Below are positions 51,421 to 64,000 of a DNA stretch of 64,000 nt, piece after piece. The first letter of the stretch is position 1, and each line of letters begins with the position of its first letter. Source of the stretch: an uncultured Rubrivivax sp. (GTDB lineage: Bacteria > Pseudomonadota > Gammaproteobacteria > Burkholderiales > Burkholderiaceae_C); NCBI GenBank assembly GCA_964454485.1, contig CAYVXO010000002.1, positions 2,218-66,217 of the forward strand, in the 5' to 3' direction. The notes under the pieces were generated by a model. The model saw nothing but the letters and a program-made list of their open reading frames with translations. It had not been told where the DNA came from and did not search any database. Position numbers and translations under genes: made by a program.

Positions 51421-51555
51421 ATGAGGTCCGTCGCCCGCCGCCCACAGCGGTTCCCTTCCGGCAGCCTGTTGTTGTCGAACGCGTCGGCGCGCCTGCTCGG
51501 CGCCGCCGCTCTGAGCGGTCTGCTGTGGCTCGCCGTGCTGTGGGCCCTCGCCTGA
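51421..51555 (+). CDS. 44-aa membrane peptide leading the metal ABC operon
   Basis: MRSV...SARLLGAAALSGLLWLAVLWALA; TGATG overlap with the ATPase; below the ORF track cutoff. Confidence 0.6.
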   Translation: MRSVARRPQRFPSGSLLLSNASARLLGAAALSGLLWLAVLWALA

Positions 51556-52316
51556 TGGATGCCGCGGCAGACCGGCCCGCCGCGATCGGGCTGCACGACC
51601 TCACGGTCGCCTACGGCGGCCACCCCGCCGTGCACCACCTGACCGGCGCCTTCGAATCCGGTTCGCTGACCGCCATCGTCGGCCCCAACGGCGCAGGCAA
51701 GAGCACCTTGCTGGCGGCCATCATGGGCCGGATCCGCCCGGCGGGCGGCGAAGTGGCCAGCGCCGCCGGCCTTGCGCGCGAGCGCATCGCCTGGCTGCCG
51801 CAGCACAGCGAGATCGATCGCAGGTTCCCGCTGCGCGTGCTCGACCTCGTCGCGCTGGGTCTGTGGCGGCGCATCGGCAGCCTGCGCGGCCTGGACGCAT
51901 CGCACCACGATGCCATCCACCGTGCCCTCGATGCCGTGGGCCTGTCGGGTTTCGAGCGGCGCGGCCTCGGGGAGTTGTCCGCGGGCCAGTTCCAGCGCGT
52001 GCTGTTCGCGCGCGTGCTGTTGCAGGACGCGCCCGTGATCCTGCTGGACGAACCGTTCAACGCGATCGACGCGCGCACCACCGCGGACCTGCTGAGCATC
52101 GTCCACCGCTGGCACGGCGAAGCGCGCACGGTGATCGCCGTGCTGCACGATCTGGATCTGGTGCGCGAGCACTTCGATCGGACGCTGCTGCTCGCCCGCC
52201 GCTGCCTCGCCTGGGGCCCCACCGCCGAAGTGCTCCGGGCCGAGAACCTGTTGCGCGCCCGGCGCATGGCCGAAGCCTGGGACGACGATGCCCCGGTCTG
52301 CCGGGAGGCCGCATGA
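51555..52316 (+). CDS. Zn/Mn-type ABC ATPase (ZnuC-like)
   Basis: GPNGAGKST, LSAGQFQR, LLDEP, LHD. Confidence 0.9.
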   Translation: MDAAADRPAAIGLHDLTVAYGGHPAVHHLTGAFESGSLTAIVGPNGAGKSTLLAAIMGRIRPAGGEVASAAGLARERIAWLPQHSEIDRRFPLRVLDLVALGLWRRIGSLRGLDASHHDAIHRALDAVGLSGFERRGLGELSAGQFQRVLFARVLLQDAPVILLDEPFNAIDARTTADLLSIVHRWHGEARTVIAVLHDLDLVREHFDRTLLLARRCLAWGPTAEVLRAENLLRARRMAEAWDDDAPVCREAA

Positions 52317-53188
52317 CCGGTGGCCAGCTGCTGCTGCAGCCGTTCGCCGAGTACGGCTTCATGCGTCGCGGGCTGGTGGCCACGCTCGCGCTCGGTCTCG
52401 GCGGCGCGCCGGTCGGCACGCTGCTGGTGCTGCGCCGCATGAGCCTGACGGGCGATGCGATCGCGCACGCCTTGCTGCCCGGCGCGGCGCTGGGTTTCAT
52501 GGCCGGCGGCTTCTCGCTCGTCGCGATGGGCGGCGGCGCCTTTGCCGCGGCGCTGGCGGTGGCGCTGGCCGCCGGCTTCGTGACCCGCGCCACGCGGCAA
52601 AGCGAGGATGCGAATTTCGCCGCCTTCTACCTGATCGCCCTCGCGCTCGGCGTGCTGCTGATCTCGACCCATGGCACCAGCGTCGACCTGATGCACATGC
52701 TGTTCGGCAGCATCCTCGCGGTCGACGACGCCGCGCTGCTGCTGATGGCCGCCGTGGCCAGCCTCACGCTGCTGACGCTGGCCGTGGTCTACCGGCCGCT
52801 GGTCGTCGAGTGCGTCGACCCGGGCTTCCTGCGCAGCATGGGCGGGCCGGGCGCCCTGGTGCATGCGGTCTTCCTCGCGTTGGCGGTGGCCAACCTGGTG
52901 GCGGGCTTCCTGGCGCTGGGCACGCTGATGGCGGTGGGCGTGATGATGCTGCCGGCGGCCGCCGCGCGCTTCTGGGCCGCGGAAGTGTGGAGCCTGATGC
53001 TGGCCGCCGCGGTCATCGCCGTCCTGTCCGGTGCGATCGGCCTGCTGCTGTCGTACCACGGCCATTGGCCTTCGGGGCCGGCCATCGTGCTGGTGGCCGG
53101 CGCCATCTACCTGGCGTCGCTCGTCGCGGGCCCGCGCGAGGGGCTGCTGTGGCAACGCCTGCGGCGCTTGACCCACCGGGCGGCCTGA
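52313..53188 (+). CDS. Zn/Mn-type ABC permease (ZnuB-like)
   Basis: RRMSLTGDAIAHALLPG, LFGSIL, PSGP. Confidence 0.9.
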   Translation: MTGGQLLLQPFAEYGFMRRGLVATLALGLGGAPVGTLLVLRRMSLTGDAIAHALLPGAALGFMAGGFSLVAMGGGAFAAALAVALAAGFVTRATRQSEDANFAAFYLIALALGVLLISTHGTSVDLMHMLFGSILAVDDAALLLMAAVASLTLLTLAVVYRPLVVECVDPGFLRSMGGPGALVHAVFLALAVANLVAGFLALGTLMAVGVMMLPAAAARFWAAEVWSLMLAAAVIAVLSGAIGLLLSYHGHWPSGPAIVLVAGAIYLASLVAGPREGLLWQRLRRLTHRAA

Positions 53189-53189
53189 A

Positions 53190-54089
53190 ATGAAGCTGTC
53201 GCGTCGATCCTGCCTGGCGCTGACGCTGGCGGCGCCGGGCCTGTCGGCCCGGGCCGGGGCCGAGCGGCCGCTGCGCGTCGTGGCGAGTTTCTCCATCCTG
53301 GCCGACATGCTGCGCAACGTGGGCGGCGACGAGGTCGAAGTCTTTGCGCTCGTGGGGCCGGACGCGGACGCGCATGTCTTCGAGCCGCGCCCGGCCGACG
53401 CCGGGCGACTGGCGCAGGCCGACCTGGTGGTGGTCAACGGGCTGGGATTCGAAGGCTGGCTGGACCGCCTGGTGCGCACATCGGGCTACCGCGGCCCGGT
53501 CGTCGTGGCCAGCGAGGGCGTCGCCCCGCGCCTCGTCGCGGGGGCCCCCGACCCGCATGCGTGGCAGGACCTTCGCCTGGCGCAGCGCTACGTGCAGAAC
53601 CTGCGCGACGCCCTGGCCCGGGCCCGGCCCGCGCGGGCCGCGGCGTTCGAGGCGCGCACGCAGGCCTACCTCGGGCGCCTGGCCGCACTCGACGCGCAGG
53701 TCCGCCGCGCCCTTGGCGGCGTGCCGGCGCAGCGGCGCCGCGTGATCACCTCGCACGACGCCTTCGGCTACTTCGGCGCGGCCTACGGCGTGGAATTCCT
53801 CGCCGCGCAGGGGCGCAGCACCGACAGCGAGCCCTCGGCGGCCGACGTCGCCCGGCTGATCGAGCAGATCCGTGCACAGCGGGTGGGTGCGGTCTTCGTC
53901 GAGAACATCAGCGACCCGCGCCTGGTGCAGCGCATCGCGAAGGAGGCCCATGCCACCGTCGGCGGGCGTCTGTACTCGGACGCGCTGTCGGCACCGGGAA
54001 CGCAGGCCGACACCTACCTGAAGTTCTTCGCACACAACGCAGACACGATTGCGCGGGCGCTGAGCCAGGGCAACGGTCGCTCGGAGTGA
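53190..54089 (+). CDS. cluster A-I metal-binding protein (ZnuA-like)
   Basis: DAHVFEP, DPHAW, HDAFGYF, YSDAL; twin-Arg-like signal. Confidence 0.9.
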   Translation: MKLSRRSCLALTLAAPGLSARAGAERPLRVVASFSILADMLRNVGGDEVEVFALVGPDADAHVFEPRPADAGRLAQADLVVVNGLGFEGWLDRLVRTSGYRGPVVVASEGVAPRLVAGAPDPHAWQDLRLAQRYVQNLRDALARARPARAAAFEARTQAYLGRLAALDAQVRRALGGVPAQRRRVITSHDAFGYFGAAYGVEFLAAQGRSTDSEPSAADVARLIEQIRAQRVGAVFVENISDPRLVQRIAKEAHATVGGRLYSDALSAPGTQADTYLKFFAHNADTIARALSQGNGRSE

Positions 54090-54181
54090 GCGATGGCCCT
54101 TCGAAAGCCCAACCCTCTGGCACGGACCCTGCATTTCGCGCAAGATGTCCGCTGTCGTTGGAAGCGGCCGCAGGGCTGAGC

Positions 54182-54748
54182 ATGAAACGTCGTCTGGTTC
54201 TCGCGGGTGTCGCCTCGGTGCTGGGTGCAGGCGCCTTCGCCGGCCTGGTGGCGGCTGCCGCGGAACCGAAGGCTCCGGCGGGTGCGGCCAAGGAAACCTC
54301 CTGGGACGACCTCGTGCCCAAGGACTGGGATCCGACGAAGCGTTTTCGGGAACTCAACCTGGGCCTGCTCAACGACGGCGACCCGCGCGTGCTGCAGCTC
54401 ATGCGGGAGATGCGCGCCACCTGGGACAACGCGCCGACCAACAGCCGCCTGGACGGCACGACGGTGAGGCTTCCGGGCTATGTCGTGCCGCTGGAAGAGG
54501 TCAAGGGCCAGCTCAGGGAGTTCCTGCTCGTGCCGTACTTCGGCGCGTGCATCCACACGCCGCCGCCGCCGGCCAACCAGATCGTGCACGTGATCGTCGG
54601 CAAGGGCGGCGAGGGCCTGCGCATGATGGACGCGGTGTGGGCCAGCGGCACCCTGAGGACACACCGTCAGGACTCGGTGATGGGCATGAGCGGCTACGCG
54701 ATGGAAGGGGCCGCCATCGAGCGCTACAGCGCTCCGAAGCGGCCATGA
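54182..54748 (+). CDS. DUF3299 family protein
   Basis: WDDLVP, LPGYVVPL, LLVPYFGACIHTPPPPANQ. Confidence 0.88.
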   Translation: MKRRLVLAGVASVLGAGAFAGLVAAAAEPKAPAGAAKETSWDDLVPKDWDPTKRFRELNLGLLNDGDPRVLQLMREMRATWDNAPTNSRLDGTTVRLPGYVVPLEEVKGQLREFLLVPYFGACIHTPPPPANQIVHVIVGKGGEGLRMMDAVWASGTLRTHRQDSVMGMSGYAMEGAAIERYSAPKRP

Positions 54749-54749
54749 G

Positions 54750-55097
54750 ATGAACTCGCGTCGCTCCGCCCCGTTCAGCGGTTCATCGCTGCTGCGCTTC
54801 GGCCGGGCGCTGCTGCTGCCTTTGCTGCTGCTGTGCGTGCAGCAGGGCGCATTCCTGCACGAGCTGAGCCACTACAAGGCCGGCGAGACCCAGCACGAAG
54901 GCGACCGGCGGCCCGCCAACGGCCCCTGTGCCCTGTGCCTGGCCTTCGCGGACGTCCAGTCGGTCGCCAGCCCGGCGGTGCCGCCGCTCCTGCTGCTGGC
55001 ACGGCTGAGTTTCGTTCTCGTTCCCGTGGCCGTCGTCATCGCGCGTGCCGCCACGCCACCGCCGCGCCGCAGCCGCGGCCCACCCGCCCACCGCTGA
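54750..55097 (+). CDS. DUF2946-like leader protein (HxxxH, CxxC, RGPP)
   Basis: Signal-like N-terminus, HELSH, CALC, RSRGPP near the stop; directly upstream of a TonB receptor. Confidence 0.75.
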   Translation: MNSRRSAPFSGSSLLRFGRALLLPLLLLCVQQGAFLHELSHYKAGETQHEGDRRPANGPCALCLAFADVQSVASPAVPPLLLLARLSFVLVPVAVVIARAATPPPRRSRGPPAHR

Positions 55098-55179
55098 ACA
55101 ACCCGGTCAGTCGATCCGCCCGCGCGACGCCCTCGTCGCGACGGGCGGGCGCCCTTGTCCCGTTCAGAGGTGGTCACCG

Positions 55180-57381
55180 ATGTCCCGTCCCCAACCGCAT
55201 GGCCTGGCCATGGCCGTCGCCCTTGCATTTCCTTCCGTCGTTCCCTTGCTCGCCATCGCGGCGGAGCCCGCCGCCGTGCTGGCCCAGGCCAGCCCCGGCA
55301 CCACGCCGTCCGACACGGCACCGAAGGCGCAGACGCCCCAGTCGGTGACGATCACCGGCCGCCCGAGCGCGACGCAGCAAGGTGCGCTGCGCGACGAGAT
55401 CGTCAAGACCGAATCGATCAACGCCCAGGAGATCGCCAAGACCGGCGCCACCAACCTGACCGAACTGATGTCGCACCGCCCCGGCATCGACGTGCAGGTC
55501 GAGTGCTCGGTCTGCAACGTGCGCAACATCACGCTGAACAACCTGCCGGGCCGCTTCACGACGCTGCTGCTCGACGGCGTGCCGATCTTCTCGTCGGTCT
55601 CCAATGCCTATGGCCTGGACATGGTCGGCCTGAACGGCCTGGAGCGGGTCGACATCTCGCGCGGCGCGGGCACCAGCCTGATCGCGCCGGAGTCGCTGGC
55701 CGGCACGGTCAACCTGGTCACCAAGCGCCCTGCGAGCGACGAGGGGGAACTGGACCTGAGCGGCGGCAACTTCGGCTTCCGTCGCGGTGCCGCGTATGGC
55801 GCCAAGACCTTCGACGGCGGCGCGCTCACCTTCACCGGCACGCTGCAGAAGCAGGACAGCGTCGACGGCGTCGGCACCGGCATCTCGCAGTACACCGGCT
55901 ACGACCGCAAGCTGCTCGGGCTCGGGCTGTTCCTGGACGACGTGGGCGGCTTCAGGATCAAGTCGCGCTTCGACCACATCGACGAGAAGCGCATGGGCGG
56001 CCCGCTGGGCAGCGACTACGACGCCGTGCGCGCCAGCACCAGCGGCAACCCCTTCGACTTCAGCAAGGGACCGCACGCCTCCCCCGACCCCAACAGCTGG
56101 GTCAATCCGTCGGACGGCAGCCTCGTGGACCCGTACAACGACGGGCGGTTCGGCCTGGCGCAGATCATCTTCACCAAGCGCGACCAGTTCGCGGGCACGG
56201 CCGAACGCTCCTTCGGCGACACCAAGCTGCGCTTCGCGCTCGGTTATGCCGAGCACAAGCAGGACTCCTGGTACGGCGGCGATGCCGACTACTTCGGCAA
56301 GCAGAAGCAGTACTACCTGGAGAGCAGCGTGCAGGCGCCGGTCGGGCCGGCGCGCATCACCGCCGGGCTGAACTTCCGCTACGAGGACCTGCACAGCCGC
56401 TCGATCAGCGAGGACCCGTCGTCGCCGACCTTCGGCGTCGAGCGCTTCGATGCCGACGCCTACGTCTACCGCACGCCGGGCGTCTTCCTGCAGGCCTACC
56501 AGACCTTCTTCGACGAGAAGCTGGAAGCCAACGCGAGCCTGCGCTACGACCGCAACAACGTCTACGGCGGCATCACCACGCCCAGGTTGAACCTGCTGTG
56601 GCACCACACCGACAACATCTCCAGCCGGTTCGCCGTCGGCCAGGGATTCCGGCTGCCGACCTCGTTCTTCGAGCTCGAGCACGCCATCCTCGGGGCGCCC
56701 GCGGTCGACCGTTCGCAGGCCAAGGCGGAGAAGTCCGACAACCTGTCCTACGCCTTCAACTACGCCGACGACCGGGTGGCCGTGACGGCTTCGATCAACC
56801 ACACGCGCATCAAGAACCTGGCGCTGTTCGTCGACGACACCGCGAACTCGGGCAACTTCCTGCTCCAGCCCGCGCCCAGTGCCTACACCATCAACAACGT
56901 GGACCTGGTGGGCACCTGGCAGGTGACCGCGCGCGACGCCTTCACGGCCGGCTACGAGCGCTACCAGTACCGCTTCAACGCCACCGACTTCCAGGGCAGC
57001 CTGTTCGCGCGGCCGGACTACCGGGTGACGCTGGCGCTCGACCACGACGCCGGGCCGTGGGACCTGAACGCCCGGGCCACGTACACCGGCCCGCAGAACC
57101 TGGCCAAGTTCTACGACTACGTGGACAGCCCGCGCTACAACCTGGACGGCTCGCCCAAGCCCGACAGGAGCCCGGGCTTCTGGGTCGTAGACCTGCGGGC
57201 CTCGTACCAGTGGAACAAGACGGTCCAGACCTACATCGGGATCAACAACGCCTTCGACTACCAGCAGGCGAAGAAGGACAGCTTCCTCTGGCTCGATGGC
57301 GACGGTGCGCTGGACGTCACGCACATCTGGGGACCCAACATCGGCCGCACGCTGGTGGCCGGGCTCAAGCTGAGCTTCTGA
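55180..57381 (+). CDS. TonB-dependent receptor with CxxC in the plug
   Basis: SVTITG TonB box, ECSVC, LLDGVP, ERVDISRG, C-terminal Phe. Confidence 0.93.
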   Translation: MSRPQPHGLAMAVALAFPSVVPLLAIAAEPAAVLAQASPGTTPSDTAPKAQTPQSVTITGRPSATQQGALRDEIVKTESINAQEIAKTGATNLTELMSHRPGIDVQVECSVCNVRNITLNNLPGRFTTLLLDGVPIFSSVSNAYGLDMVGLNGLERVDISRGAGTSLIAPESLAGTVNLVTKRPASDEGELDLSGGNFGFRRGAAYGAKTFDGGALTFTGTLQKQDSVDGVGTGISQYTGYDRKLLGLGLFLDDVGGFRIKSRFDHIDEKRMGGPLGSDYDAVRASTSGNPFDFSKGPHASPDPNSWVNPSDGSLVDPYNDGRFGLAQIIFTKRDQFAGTAERSFGDTKLRFALGYAEHKQDSWYGGDADYFGKQKQYYLESSVQAPVGPARITAGLNFRYEDLHSRSISEDPSSPTFGVERFDADAYVYRTPGVFLQAYQTFFDEKLEANASLRYDRNNVYGGITTPRLNLLWHHTDNISSRFAVGQGFRLPTSFFELEHAILGAPAVDRSQAKAEKSDNLSYAFNYADDRVAVTASINHTRIKNLALFVDDTANSGNFLLQPAPSAYTINNVDLVGTWQVTARDAFTAGYERYQYRFNATDFQGSLFARPDYRVTLALDHDAGPWDLNARATYTGPQNLAKFYDYVDSPRYNLDGSPKPDRSPGFWVVDLRASYQWNKTVQTYIGINNAFDYQQAKKDSFLWLDGDGALDVTHIWGPNIGRTLVAGLKLSF

Positions 57382-57887
57382 TGAAGGCGCAGCGCGTGCG
57401 AGCGGCCCGCATGCTGTGGGCAGTGGTCGCGGCGGCGTCCTGCGGTCTGCCGGTCGCGGCAGCGCCGGCGATGGGCCTCGAACTACCGATGCTGGACGGC
57501 ACCACCTTCGTCACGCTGGACGACTACGCCGGCCGGCCCGTGCTGCTGAACTTCTGGGGCAGCGAATGCCCACCGTGCCTGGCCGAGCTGCCGCTGCTGT
57601 TCGCGCAGGCGGCGCGGCACCCGCAGGTGCAGTTCCTCGGCATCGCGGTGGACCAGCGGGCGGCCGCGGCGCGCTTTCTGGCGCGCCTGCAGCCCAGCTA
57701 TCCGCAGCTCGTCGCTTCGACCCGGCCCGAAGTGCTGCTGCGCCGCTTCGGCAACAAGGCCGGCGCGCTGCCGTACACGGTGGTGCTCGATGGCCGGCAC
57801 GAGGTCTGTGCCTCGCGCCTCGGCGAGGTCGACGCAGCCTGGATCGCCGCCGCCGCCCAGACCTGCGGCACGGCACCGTCGCGCTGA
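57381..57887 (+). CDS. TlpA-family disulfide reductase
   Basis: TGATG overlap; LLNFWGSECPPC, ALPYT. Confidence 0.88.
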   Translation: MKAQRVRAARMLWAVVAAASCGLPVAAAPAMGLELPMLDGTTFVTLDDYAGRPVLLNFWGSECPPCLAELPLLFAQAARHPQVQFLGIAVDQRAAAARFLARLQPSYPQLVASTRPEVLLRRFGNKAGALPYTVVLDGRHEVCASRLGEVDAAWIAAAAQTCGTAPSR

Positions 57888-57930
57888 ACCCCCCAGGCCC
57901 CGAACGCCTGCATCACAAGGAACGCCCCCC

Positions 57931-58455
57931 ATGAAGTCTTCGATCAGGACCGTCCTCTTCGCCCTCGGCCTGGCGCCCCTGCTGGCCTGCGCGGCCGGCA
58001 AGGCCCACGTGCACGGCGTCGCCAGGCTCGACATCGCGGTGGAGGCGAAGAAGATCACGCTGCAACTGGAGTCGCCGCTGGACAACCTGCTCGGCTACGA
58101 GCGCGCGCCGCGCACCGACGCCGAGCGCAAGCAGGCCGATGCCCTGGTGGCCAGGCTGAAGGCGGCCGGAACGATGTTCCGGATCGACCCCGCCGCGCAA
58201 TGCACGCTTGCCCATGTCGAGCTGGCGTCGTCGGCACTGAAGCTCGGGCAGCCGGATCCTTCGGAGGAAGGCCACGCCGACATCGACGGCTCGTTCGAGT
58301 TCGACTGCACCGATGCCACGCGAGCGGCCTTCGTCGAGGTCGGCCTGTTCGAGTTCGCGCGCCTGCAGCGCATCGAGGTCCAGGTGGCCGCCCCGCAGGG
58401 CCAGTTCAAGCGCGACCTGCAGCGACCGGCCCAGCGCATCTCGCTCGTGAAGTGA
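57931..58455 (+). CDS. DUF2796 / ZrgA-like periplasmic protein
   Basis: AHVHG, LESPLDNLLGYE, HADI...C. Confidence 0.85.
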   Translation: MKSSIRTVLFALGLAPLLACAAGKAHVHGVARLDIAVEAKKITLQLESPLDNLLGYERAPRTDAERKQADALVARLKAAGTMFRIDPAAQCTLAHVELASSALKLGQPDPSEEGHADIDGSFEFDCTDATRAAFVEVGLFEFARLQRIEVQVAAPQGQFKRDLQRPAQRISLVK

Positions 58456-58465
58456 GGGGCGCAGC

Positions 58466-59176
58466 ATGATCGAGGTCCGCCAGCTGCGTTTTGCCTGGCC
58501 GAAGGCCGGTGCCGACTGCGTCGCGATCGACGCGCTCGATGTCGCCGTCGGCCGCACGCTGTTCCTCCACGGCCCCAGCGGTGGCGGCAAGAGCACGCTG
58601 CTCGGCCTGCTGGCCGGCGTGCTGCTGCCGCGCGAGGGCAGCGTGAGCCTGATGGGGACCTCATGGTCGTCGCTGTCGGGCGCTCGCCGCGACGCCTTCC
58701 GCGCCGACCACGTGGGCTACATCTTCCAGCAGTTCAACCTGCTGCCCTACCTGAGCGTGCTGGACAACGTGCTGCTGCCCTGCCGCTTCTCCGCGCTGCG
58801 GCGCCAACGTGCGGCGGGCGACGCCGGCGCGCCCGCCGCGGCGGCCCAGGAATTGCTGCGGCAGGTCGGCCTGCCCGATCCGCTGTGGACGCGCTCCGCG
58901 GCACAGCTGTCGGTCGGGCAGCAGCAGCGGGTGGCTGCCGCGCGCGCCCTGATCGGCCGCCCCGAGGTCGTGATCGCCGACGAACCGACCTCGGCGCTGG
59001 ACGCGGCGCTGCGCGACGGCTTCATGGACCTGCTGCTGGACAGATGCCGTGCCGCGGGCAGCACACTGGTGTTCGTGAGCCACGACGAACGATTGGCCGC
59101 CCGCTTCGACACCCGGGTGTCGCTGGCCGACGTGAACCACGCCACGCAGGCGGCTGCGCTGGAAGTCGCGTCATGA
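58466..59176 (+). CDS. ABC ATPase (LolD/MacB-like)
   Basis: GPSGGGKST, FQQFNL, LSVGQQQR. Confidence 0.9.
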   Translation: MIEVRQLRFAWPKAGADCVAIDALDVAVGRTLFLHGPSGGGKSTLLGLLAGVLLPREGSVSLMGTSWSSLSGARRDAFRADHVGYIFQQFNLLPYLSVLDNVLLPCRFSALRRQRAAGDAGAPAAAAQELLRQVGLPDPLWTRSAAQLSVGQQQRVAAARALIGRPEVVIADEPTSALDAALRDGFMDLLLDRCRAAGSTLVFVSHDERLAARFDTRVSLADVNHATQAAALEVAS

Positions 59177-60447
59177 GGGCCATCCTGGCCGTGGCGCTGC
59201 GCAGCGCCTGGAACCGCCGCGGGACGCTGTCGCTGGTGGTGATGTCGGTGGCCTTGTCCTCCCTCCTGCTGCTGAGCGTCGAACGCATCCGGACCGACGT
59301 GCGCGAGAGCTTCTCGCAGTCGGTCAGCGGCACCGACCTGATCGTCGGCGCCCGCACCGGCTCGATGCAGCTGCTGCTGTACGCCGTGTTCCGCGTCGGC
59401 GGGGCGACCAACAACGTGCGCATGGACAGCCTGCAGGAGATCGCCCGGCACCGCGCGGTGGCCTGGATGGTGCCGCTGTCGCTGGGCGATTCGCACCGCG
59501 GCTTCCCGGTGCTGGCGACGACGACCGAATACTTCCAGCGTTTCCTGTACGGCGACCGGCAGCCGCTCGTGCTGGCCCAGGGCCGGCCCTTCGCGGGCAC
59601 GCTGGACGGGCTTTACGAGGCGGTCATCGGCGCGGACGTGGCCGGTGCGCTCGGCTACCGCCTGGGGCAGCGCATCATCCTGAGCCACGGCAGCGGCGTG
59701 ATCCCGGGCGCCGAACATGCCGACAAGCCGTTCACCGTGGTCGGCATCCTGGCGCGCACGGGCACGCCGGTGGACCGCACCGTGCACATCAGCCTGGAGG
59801 CGATGGAGGCGATCCACCTCGACTGGGTGGCCGGCGTGCCGATGCCGGGCATGAAGATCGCCCCGCAGGACGCGCGCAAGTTCGACCTGCGGCCCAAGCA
59901 GGTCACGGCGGCGCTGATCGGCCTCAAGAGTCGCGCGGCGGTGTTCGCGGTGCAGCGCGCGGTGGCCGACTACGCCGGCGAGCCGCTGATGGCCGTGCTG
60001 CCCGGGGTGGCGCTGGACGAGCTGTGGGACGTGGTCGGGGTCGGCGAGCGGGCCCTGCTCGCCATGTCGGCGATGGTGGCCTTCGTCAGCCTGGCCGGCC
60101 TGATCGCGGTGGTGCTGGCGGGGCTCAACGAGCGCCGGCGCGAACTCGCCGTGCTGCGTGCCGTCGGCGCTGCGCCGCGCCACGTCATGCTGATGCTGGC
60201 GCTGGAAGGCGGCTTCGTCACGCTGGTCGGGGTGGGCATCGGCGTCGTCGCCACGGTCGGCGTGATCGCCGTCGCCGGGCCGTGGATCCAGGCGCGGTTC
60301 GGCATCGCGCTCAGCGCGTCGGCACCGACGCCCGGCCAATGGGGGCTGCTCGGCGCCGTCATGGCGGCGGGCTTCCTGGCCAGCCTGGTGCCCGGCTGGC
60401 GCGCCTACCGGCTGTCGCTGGCCGACGGGCTGTCGCCGAGGACGTGA
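59173..60447 (+). CDS. FtsX/MacB-like ABC permease
   Basis: DLIVGAR, PLSLGDSH, ERRRELAVLRAVGA. Confidence 0.9.
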   Translation: MRAILAVALRSAWNRRGTLSLVVMSVALSSLLLLSVERIRTDVRESFSQSVSGTDLIVGARTGSMQLLLYAVFRVGGATNNVRMDSLQEIARHRAVAWMVPLSLGDSHRGFPVLATTTEYFQRFLYGDRQPLVLAQGRPFAGTLDGLYEAVIGADVAGALGYRLGQRIILSHGSGVIPGAEHADKPFTVVGILARTGTPVDRTVHISLEAMEAIHLDWVAGVPMPGMKIAPQDARKFDLRPKQVTAALIGLKSRAAVFAVQRAVADYAGEPLMAVLPGVALDELWDVVGVGERALLAMSAMVAFVSLAGLIAVVLAGLNERRRELAVLRAVGAAPRHVMLMLALEGGFVTLVGVGIGVVATVGVIAVAGPWIQARFGIALSASAPTPGQWGLLGAVMAAGFLASLVPGWRAYRLSLADGLSPRT

Positions 60448-61681: not shown

Positions 61682-62175
61682 ATGCCCAAGACCCTGCGGT
61701 TCTCCGACATCGTCGACAGCACGCCATGGGCGCAGCGCGTCGGCGACGCCGAGGCCGCGCGCGTCTGGGCCGAGCACGACCGCCGCGCGCGCCAGGCGCG
61801 CCTGCCACGAGGCGGCACTCGAAATCTGCACCCGGCTCGGAGACCGCCACGGCGTGGGCTACGTCCGCGGCGGCCTGGCCATCCTCAACCGGCACATGGC
61901 ACGCGTCGACGAATCGCGCCGGCACTACGAGGCGGCGCTGGCCGTGTACCGCGAGGTGGGCGACCGGCGCTCCGAAGGCATCGCGCTGGGCAACCTGGCC
62001 AACCTGCCGATCGACCAGGGGCCCATCGCCGAGGGCGAGCAGCACCTGCTGGCCGCGCTGGCCATCATGGCCGAGCTGCGCAACGTCTGCCACGAAGGCG
62101 TGATGCTCGACGACCTGGCGACTCTGGAGCTGCAGCAGGGCCGCCTGGACGACGCGCGCCGATCCCTGGACCGGC
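61682..62175 (+). pseudogene. internally deleted cyclase-like/TPR gene
   Basis: FSDIVDST...WAEHDR N-terminus joined out of frame near 61795 to TPR helices (HYEAALAVYREVGDRRSEGIALGNLA). Confidence 0.7.
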
Positions 62176-62369
62176 CCCCTCGGCTCGCAAGCCGGGCGGC
62201 CTGCCTTCCCGCGCGATACCGCGCCCGCCCGTACCAGACTTGCCGCAAGGGCGGGGCAGGCATCGAGGGCCGCGCTCGATCGACGGACCGCACGCATCGG
62301 CGTGATGCCGGTGCCGGCCAGCGCGGATCGAAGTCGACCCTGGTGGCCGGCCGCGAAGTCCCGGCGGCC

Positions 62370-63485
62370 TCAGCCCGCGTCCGGCACGATCTCCGCCGGC
62401 GGGTAGTACGCGCGTTCGCCGAGCGCGTCCACGCGGTCCCAGAACGCGGCGCTCACGGCCAGGCCGCGCGCGTCCTTCGCGGCGGTCTGGCGCCACATCG
62501 CCCACGAATCGGGGTGCAGCGCGGTGGCCCTGGCGAACGCGGCCTGCGCCTCGGCGTCCTGGCCCTCGTGCTGCAGGTGCCGGCCCAGGCGGAACCAGGC
62601 GTGGGCCTCGGCGGTGGCGTCGCTGGCCCGCGGCAGGCGCGCGGCGGCCCGGCGCGCGTCGAGCGCGTTCGCGCTCGCGCTGCCGTGGCGCCCCCAGTGG
62701 CGCACCGCGTCGAAGTAGGCGGTCTTGCGGCGCTGCCGTTCGGCGAGCACCGCTTCAGGCATCGCGCCGGTGCTGCGGTCCATCGCCCGGAAGCCGTCGC
62801 TCGAGCCCGCGGTCTCGGGCGGGCGCACGATGCGGCCGCCCTCGTCGATCCACACCGCCTGCGGCACGTTGACCAGGCCGTAGAGCGCGGCCACGTGGTG
62901 GTCGGCGTCGATCAGGCAGGGGTACGAGGGCTTTGCGGCCTCGATCCAGGGGCGCGCGGCCTCGGCCGTGTCCAGCGCGACGGCGAGCACCGTGAACGGT
63001 GCGTCCTTCAGGTCTTCTGCCAGCGACTGCCACACGGGCAAGTCCAGCCGGCAGCCTCACCAGCTGGCCCAGGTGGCGAGGAAGACGCGGCGCCCGCGCA
63101 GGTCGCTCAGACGATGTGGCCGCCCGGCGAGATCGGGCAGCTCGAAGTCGGGCGCCTGCAGCGATTCCAGCGCGGCGCTGCGCTGCGCGGCGCCGGTGCC
63201 CAGCACCCAGGTGCGGCCGGCGCCGTCGTGCACCACCGGCTGGCCGCTGCGGCGCCACATCGCGGCGACGTCCAGCTGCGGTGCCTGGCCCGGCGGTGTG
63301 CGGACGTGTTCGGCACGTGCGGCCGGCGGCAACGGCACGCAGACCTCGCCGTGACACAGGCCTTCGGGCTTCCACTGCCAGCCGGTCGCGGCCTCGAGGG
63401 CGGGTGCGTCCAGCCACAGCGACCCGGCCTCCGCGGTCGCGTCGGGGTGCGTGGTGGTGCGTTGTTCGTGGAGGATCGTGATCAT
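62370..63485 (-). CDS. probable selenoprotein: TlpA/ResA-like thiol oxidoreductase with WASW-U-GC (Sec143), 371 aa
   Basis: AGGAAAGG RBS and ATG at 63485; in-frame TGA at 63059-63057 joins APDFELPD...FLATWASW to GCRLDLPVW...NVPQAVWIDE. Confidence 0.85.
63017..63056 (-). promoter_or_regulatory. bacterial SECIS hairpin
   Basis: Just 3' of the UGA: lower stem CUGCCGGC/GCUGGCAG, upper stem GAC(U)UGCC/GGCAGUC with bulged U, loop CGUGU. Confidence 0.8.
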
Positions 63486-63645
63486 CGGCGGCCCTTTCCT
63501 GCCTGCCGGACCATTGTGCCCAGCTCCGCCGGCCCTCGGCGGCATGGGGTCGCGGCCCCGGCGCTCCGGCACACGCCACGCTACGATCCGCAGCCGCGCG
63601 CCCGCGCCGCCCAGGCGGCCCGCGAGGGCGCCGCGGGGGAGGGGC

Positions 63646-64000
63646 ATGACCCGGCAGGCTCTGTTGTTCGCCGACGTGGTCGACAGCACGCAGCTCGGCG
63701 AACGGCTGGGCGACCTGCGTGCGGCGGCGCTGTGGGCCGAGCACGACCGCCAGGCGCGTGCGCTGCTGGCGCGCCACGGCGGGCGCGAGATCGACCGCGC
63801 CGACGGCTTCTTCCTGCTCTTCGACGACGTGGCCGGCGCGGCGCGTTTCGCGCTCGGCTACCACGAGGCGCTGGCCGCGCTCGGGCTCGCGGCCCGCGTC
63901 GGCATGCACGCGGGCGAGGTGGTGCTGCGCGAGAACGCGGCCGCCGACGTTGCGCGCGGTGCCAAGCCGCTGGAAGTGGACGGCCGCGCCAAGCCGATGG
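63646..64000 (+). CDS. class III adenylate/guanylate cyclase-like domain protein (runs off window)
   Basis: GGAGGGG RBS; LLFADVVDST, GGREIDRADG, RVGMHAGEV. Confidence 0.8.
   Translation, partial: MTRQALLFADVVDSTQLGERLGDLRAAALWAEHDRQARALLARHGGREIDRADGFFLLFDDVAGAARFALGYHEALAALGLAARVGMHAGEVVLRENAAADVARGAKPLEVDGRAKPM

Follow-up and report, generated by a model that had tools for sequence, protein, structure and literature searches.

Does the in-frame TGA that separates two open reading frames of an uncultured Rubrivivax sp. end a protein, or does it encode the catalytic residue of a single, longer one? The two ORFs (63057–63689 and 62370–63041) lie near one end of the 64,000-nucleotide stretch of DNA analysed here (the window), and an earlier note, made from the sequence alone, had joined them into a thioredoxin-fold selenoprotein of about 371 aa. 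The coordinates, frame and reading given there proved exact. Both ORFs belong to one frame, interrupted by TGA and five sense codons (GCRLD) ahead of a TTG at 63041, and the sequence around codon 143 reads FLATWASW-(TGA)-GCRLDLPVWQ, with WASW-U-GC as the active site. From the ATG at 63485, a start position shared by the homologues, to the stop ending at 62370 there are 372 codons with a single internal stop, yielding the 371-aa product (Table 1). Composition is coding-like on both sides of the TGA (GC3 of 0.89 upstream and 0.96 downstream). Codon 143 is spanned by contigs from three of four public runs (X7, X9 and X14) with no difference listed, the fourth run (X11) having only short pieces in this region. 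A scan for promoters and terminators found none.

Table 1. Features of the gene, in window coordinates
Feature	Position	Strand	Basis
Shine-Dalgarno-like purine-rich run 5' of ATG 63485	63492..63500	-	seen in sequence
Complete coding sequence (371 aa and stop codon) with a single TGA in frame	62370..63485	-	frame reading; NF041054 match; confident structure model
N-terminal beta-rich domain of ~97 aa, residues 1–97	63195..63485	-	confident model
GLCHGEVC motif (Cys44, Cys49) on predicted beta-hairpin	63339..63362	-	strands E42–45 and E48–51
TlpA/ResA-type thioredoxin fold, residues ~102–270	62676..63182	-	PF00578, 71.6 bits; Foldseek; structural alignment
TGA codon 143, predicted selenocysteine, immediately N-terminal of active-site helix	63057..63059	-	frame; homologue alignment; 3kcm alignment; model
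Cys145, second residue named of the U-G-C motif	63051..63053	-	kept in 83/83 loci
SECIS-type stem-loop (core 63044–63025, bulged U; apical loop CGUGU 63036–63032)	63017..63054	-	folding; cross-species pairing
N206-V207-P208, at conserved Pro loop of thioredoxin-like reductases	62862..62870	-	aligned to 3kcm GVP; NVPQA in 80/80
TPR-like C-terminal helices, residues ~289–334	62484..62621	-	TPR_2 23.1 bits, below cut-off 27

Relationship to the UGC-containing redoxins

The gene, so far not annotated as such, very likely belongs to a selenoprotein family that has been predicted since 2008, and is not a new kind of system. The 2008 GOS paper (PMC2398784) described a "Prx-like (UGC-containing)" family of 46 GOS sequences, and the present protein likewise has a UGC motif within a pfam00578/TlpA-like domain. 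By-eye comparison identified close relatives in Dataset S1 of that paper: the entries JCVI_READ_1095963304198 and 1095901943044 share with our protein the N-terminal Cys motif KPEGLC-x4-C, WSSWUGCR-x-DLPVWQ at the active site, VNVP-x-AVWIDE at the Pro loop, HPDSW, and DRVDALGE in the C-terminal part. We found no substantive difference between that family and our protein apart from the genome that carries it. Selenoprotein inventories of 2022 and 2026 include the family, the 2026 review placing it in the TlpA group (cd02966) with the status of predicted only, in agreement with the statement of the earlier note that no characterised function was known.

The note had also pointed to a database family for WAxxUGC ResA-like proteins. 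Such a family exists: NCBIfam NF041054 (WAxxUGC_long, "ResA-like WAxxUGC motif-containing protein") was by far the best model for our protein, covering profile positions 8–351 of 354 over residues 25–363 with the motif WASWUGC present, and the two halves of the gene match its successive stretches 8–115 and 117–351. Scored with C for U, the match reaches 287 bits against a curated cut-off of 300, therefore PGAP would not assign the name, and the protein is a close homologue of NF041054 and not a formal member. All 50 aligned homologues match this model, and a Myxococcus protein with 58% identity bears the name. Scores were 276–301 bits for close relatives and 276–326 for relatives. The family is widespread, 492 relatives having been confirmed in one genome-collection scan. 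Because standard gene calling splits the gene at the UGA, databases contain halves without the active site, the database copy of the present gene being a 221-aa half (P0018).

The term "WAxxUGC" was absent from the literature searched, which also yielded no experimental study of UGC redoxins (Haft and Tolstoy 2025 was outside this search). Moreover, the accessible portion of the preprint by Haft and Gwadz contained no mention of ResA, TlpA, UGC or NF041054, and the family is not named in the main text of PMC13326102 as far as it was available.

Conservation of the TGA codon

Whether homologues carry TGA or a sense codon at position 143 was determined at 83 homologous loci, consisting of three same-genus loci (the gene is present in 3 of 150 relatives) and the best 80 of the 492 relatives from the genome-collection scan. 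Only TGA (76 loci) and Cys (seven loci: six TGC and one TGT) were found; Trp or Arg, which would have pointed to a simple nonsense mutation, and other stops occurred in none of the 83 loci, which are 51–77% identical. One genome is represented twice (L094 and L032), and counting distinct loci gives 75 TGA and 7 Cys out of 82. The residues G-C-R continue after the Sec/Cys position in all 83. Two TGA-form paralogues (L063 and L076) occur within one genome.

When a quick tree of 81 rows was computed without the Sec site and rooted at its midpoint, the seven Cys forms appeared at least five separate times, nested in TGA clades; the rows were top matches to a Sec-form query, which limits inference on the direction and rate of Sec/Cys change. 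Six of the seven Cys forms come from selA-positive genomes. Sec-to-Cys substitutions in bacteria are called rare in the 2026 review. In the wider family, above the NF041054 cut-off, the active site of the proteins P0194, P0189 and P0226 deviates, with the forms WASWSEC, WATWCSC and WGSYCGC. Ser takes the place of Sec in P0194, and the nucleophile is therefore not universal across this wider family.

The hairpin downstream of the UGA

The 3' hairpin that the earlier note had invoked is present as a SECIS-type structure with codon-level constraint across species. Its loop lies 20 nt 3' of the UGA, the whole hairpin folds with −23.1 kcal/mol and the 20-nt core alone with −6.8, and the upper stem has 4 bp with U19 bulged, or 3 bp in the MFE drawing. 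The whole hairpin falls within the bSECIS limits (loop of 3–9 nt, G in its first two positions, 16–37 nt from the UGA, upper stem of 4–16 bp, MFE ≤ −7.5), a loose model that is poorly specific in GC-rich DNA. It also agrees with the bSECIS consensus given in PMC13188914. As a single sequence the hairpin was not significant: 11.9% of 2000 synonymous shuffles fold equally well and 64% satisfy the loose model, which makes the hairpin of one sequence weak evidence. Support for it derives from cross-species constraint.

All 75 TGA forms can make the four upper pairs, compared to 4/7 Cys forms. Of these 75, 67 have CGUGU as the loop and eight have GGUCU; the latter (L085, L087, L088, L090, L092, L096, L097 and L100) form one clade, mostly of Rokubacteria/Methylomirabilota, and their loop appears to be a lineage-specific SECIS variant. 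The constraint is visible in codon choice as well. In 74 TGA-form genes, Val151 is encoded by GTG in 66, the most codon-constrained of 16 Val columns, and Pro150 by CCC in 40 of 48, the most constrained of 18 Pro columns, while Leu149 is TTG in 30 of the 74 vs 9% at other positions. The exchange of Pro for Ser at residue 150 retains a C-G or U-G pair, and a T at +34, linked to the TTG of Leu149, is always accompanied by a T at +19 (28/28 sequences). Covariation was computed on a 49-row subset, of which one row (L031) was cut 4 bases off. It did not exceed shuffles for the bulged-U register, and for an alternative lower-stem register it was above all 500 shuffles, a signal that relatedness alone can yield.

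Selenocysteine machinery in the genome

The genome, 97.5% complete, carries all four genes for selenocysteine synthesis and insertion that were sought. Matches to selA and selD scored 568.6 and 429.3 bits, selB is divided between two contigs, with one piece at an end of C322 and one at an end of C195, and the tRNA-Sec gene selC (84 bits) follows directly after the 3' piece of selB. A formate dehydrogenase in the same genome has its own in-frame TGA. Across the 80 loci from the genome-collection scan, which correspond to 79 genomes, selA was detected in 65 of 72 TGA-carrying genomes vs 57 of 150 relatives taken as background (56/149 without one unpublished genome, G116); kin are non-independent, so no P value is given. 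All three same-genus carriers have selA.

Some neighbours of these genes are recorded as side observations. An FdhE-like ORF precedes selA on C322, and between selA and selB (G000:C322:980-4294, minus strand) there is a small thioredoxin-like match (a weak NF041054 match, 2193–2519), together with a 397-codon ORF that we take to be a transglutaminase-family protein. At the selD locus, a glycosyltransferase-like ORF overlaps (G000:C117:13425-15373), an arrangement presumably akin to selenoneine/selenosugar gene clusters.

Protein architecture and structure model

A structure model built from a 50-row alignment with C for U was confident (pLDDT 95.1, pTM 0.92) and showed a central thioredoxin fold flanked by an N-terminal domain and C-terminal helices. 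The central part matched ResA in Foldseek (E 3e-11), and structural alignment placed it closest to ResA/DsbE-type reductases (3gl3: Z 15.0, rmsd 2.1, 138 aligned residues; ResA 2f9s: Z 14.7, rmsd 2.2, 136 aligned residues). Besides the fold, it has in common with ResA/TlpA/DsbE proteins the Pro loop and the WAxW that precedes the attacking residue. The earlier note had placed the TGA at the nucleophilic Cys of TlpA/ResA, and the 3kcm alignment agrees, as Sec143 is aligned to the first, attacking Cys of the CxxC with one residue of that motif absent. In contrast to these proteins, however, our protein has UxC instead of CxxC, carries extra N-terminal and TPR-like domains, and scores far under the cut-offs of the ResA/TlpA/DsbE models. 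An N-terminal membrane anchor or export signal is a feature of ResA/TlpA, whereas a hydropathy scan of our protein detected no hydrophobic signal or membrane stretch (19-aa maximum 0.89, N-terminal maximum 0.44); the highest N-terminal value among 80 homologues in the same type of scan was 1.01.

The N-terminal domain had no Pfam match, none being common to 42 members, and no Foldseek match at E ≤ 0.001, and its Atlas matches at ≥ 0.9 were solely to unnamed clusters. Structural alignment gave weak matches, the best being a Synechocystis hypothetical protein (5h3k: Z 6.1, rmsd 3.5, 86 aligned), followed by residues 7–80 of 1d6u, the N-terminal stalk of copper amine oxidase (Z 3.4, rmsd 3.4, 57 aligned), and by 8imd (Z 3.2). 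Its two cysteines, Cys44 and Cys49, are invariant in the 50 aligned proteins, and GxCxxxxC occurs in 80/80 close homologues (three of the 83 loci, lacking a start, being left out of the 80-homologue counts) and in 143/150 distant matches. At the other end, the model has helices at 289–306, 310–323 and 328–334, with profile matches to consensus TPR proteins. The UxC motif, the N-terminal Cys domain and the TPR-like pair, which the earlier note had considered unusual, are thus real but common to the family. Of 7996 longer candidates searched for fused forms, a single one matched, over 34% of the query, which is weak evidence either way.

Genomic neighbourhood

No conserved operon was detected in flanks of up to 5 kb, where the commonest neighbour family occurred at 12 of 80 loci and adjacent same-strand genes were common to at most three, and conserved neighbours point to no substrate. 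In the window, the gene sits between two related sequences on the opposite strand, 61682–62200 (+) and 63646–64000 (+). The right-hand one is the beginning of a long ORF that we assume, on motif labels, to have a cyclase-like N-terminus and a P-loop; the left-hand one is a short remnant, in which one frame has an N-terminus similar to that of the right ORF and a different frame has TPR repeats, and is likely a decayed paralogue. Further away, 51525–60447 (+) contains a run of what we take, again by motif labels, to be metal ABC-transporter-like, TonB-receptor-like and small thioredoxin-like genes. A Pfam scan of the neighbouring window ORFs identified an ABC permease in this run as FtsX/MacB and named nothing else. 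The run is not conserved beside the homologues.

Decoding of the UGA and alternative readings of the protein

It appears very improbable that the TGA is a true stop, with the gene a pseudogene or its two halves made separately, or that read-through inserts Trp or Cys. Such a reading could draw on the 37 of 120 database matches that lack the motif and begin after the UGA, on the 30 of 150 N-domain matches that end at WxxW, and on the seven of 72 TGA genomes in which selA was not matched, every one titled MAG with no completeness given, which weighs against recoding. Against it, the interruption is always TGA, at a single catalytic codon, across Pseudomonadota and Rokubacteria, uninterrupted Cys forms exist, and the SECIS element is constrained; moreover, the gene itself ends with a TGA, which excludes a code-wide reassignment. 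Recoding of the UGA as Sec via SelB and the SECIS is predicted with near certainty.

The chemistry of the selenoprotein is less firmly settled, as the peroxiredoxin 5enu (Z 12.9) scores close behind the best match and therefore the fold does not fix it. We consider it unlikely that the protein acts as a peroxidase in which peroxides would be reduced by Sec143, with Cys145 as the resolving residue and the N-terminal Cys pair recycling the enzyme. AhpC-TSA is indeed the best Pfam match, BCP/Prx structures align at Z 11–13, and the family was named Prx-like in 2008, but the placement under TlpA in the 2026 review goes the other way. The peroxidatic motif of peroxiredoxins is PxxxTxxC. This motif is not present in our protein, which has WASW-U at the site and retains the reductase-type Pro loop, and Prx models score only 19–24 bits against cut-offs of 140–260, far below the ResA/TlpA models (64.7 bits vs 24.3 for the best Prx model). 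Binding or reduction of a metal or metalloid through U-G-C and the invariant GxCxxxxC seems less likely still. The two invariant cysteines on a predicted hairpin would suit such a role, and so would the genes at 51.5–60.4 kb of the window, presumed from motif labels to be metal ABC/TonB-like; these genes, however, are about 2 kb away on the opposite strand, in a neighbourhood with no family common to more than 12 of 80 loci.

The reading that we prefer is that the gene makes one 371-aa cytoplasmic selenoprotein, probably a thioredoxin-type disulfide reductase or isomerase, as the best structural matches suggest. On analogy with CGC bacilliredoxins, Sec143 would more likely than not be the nucleophile for disulfides or mixed disulfides, with resolution by Cys145 or by a small thiol. 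SelB loaded with Sec-tRNA would bind the hairpin and allow insertion of Sec143, which, from fold and alignment, may then attack a substrate disulfide or a glutathione mixed disulfide at the site of the attacking Cys of TlpA/ResA. For this intermediate, either Cys145 or a low-molecular-weight thiol could serve as the resolving partner, as in the bacilliredoxins BrxA/BrxB (UPF0403), which have a CGC active site in a thioredoxin fold and, according to PMC5444506, reduce S-bacillithiolated proteins. The Brx family was absent from the Pfam and NCBIfam results for our protein, and the parallel is a mechanistic analogy only. More speculatively, the TPR-like helices might bind a partner, and Cys44/Cys49 might relay electrons or bind metal. 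A bolder version, conceivable if rather doubtful, is a self-recycling three-module cytoplasmic selenoenzyme in which the Cys-x4-Cys hairpin would reduce or metal-prime U-G-C and the TPR-like cap would select a protein client, with recurrent Sec-to-Cys swaps.

The annotation of this locus is thereby corrected from two split ORFs to a very likely selenoprotein. Its UxC site, the orphan Cys domain and the natural Sec/Cys pairs make the protein a reasonable biochemical target, and those pairs in particular offer material for testing why selenium is retained.
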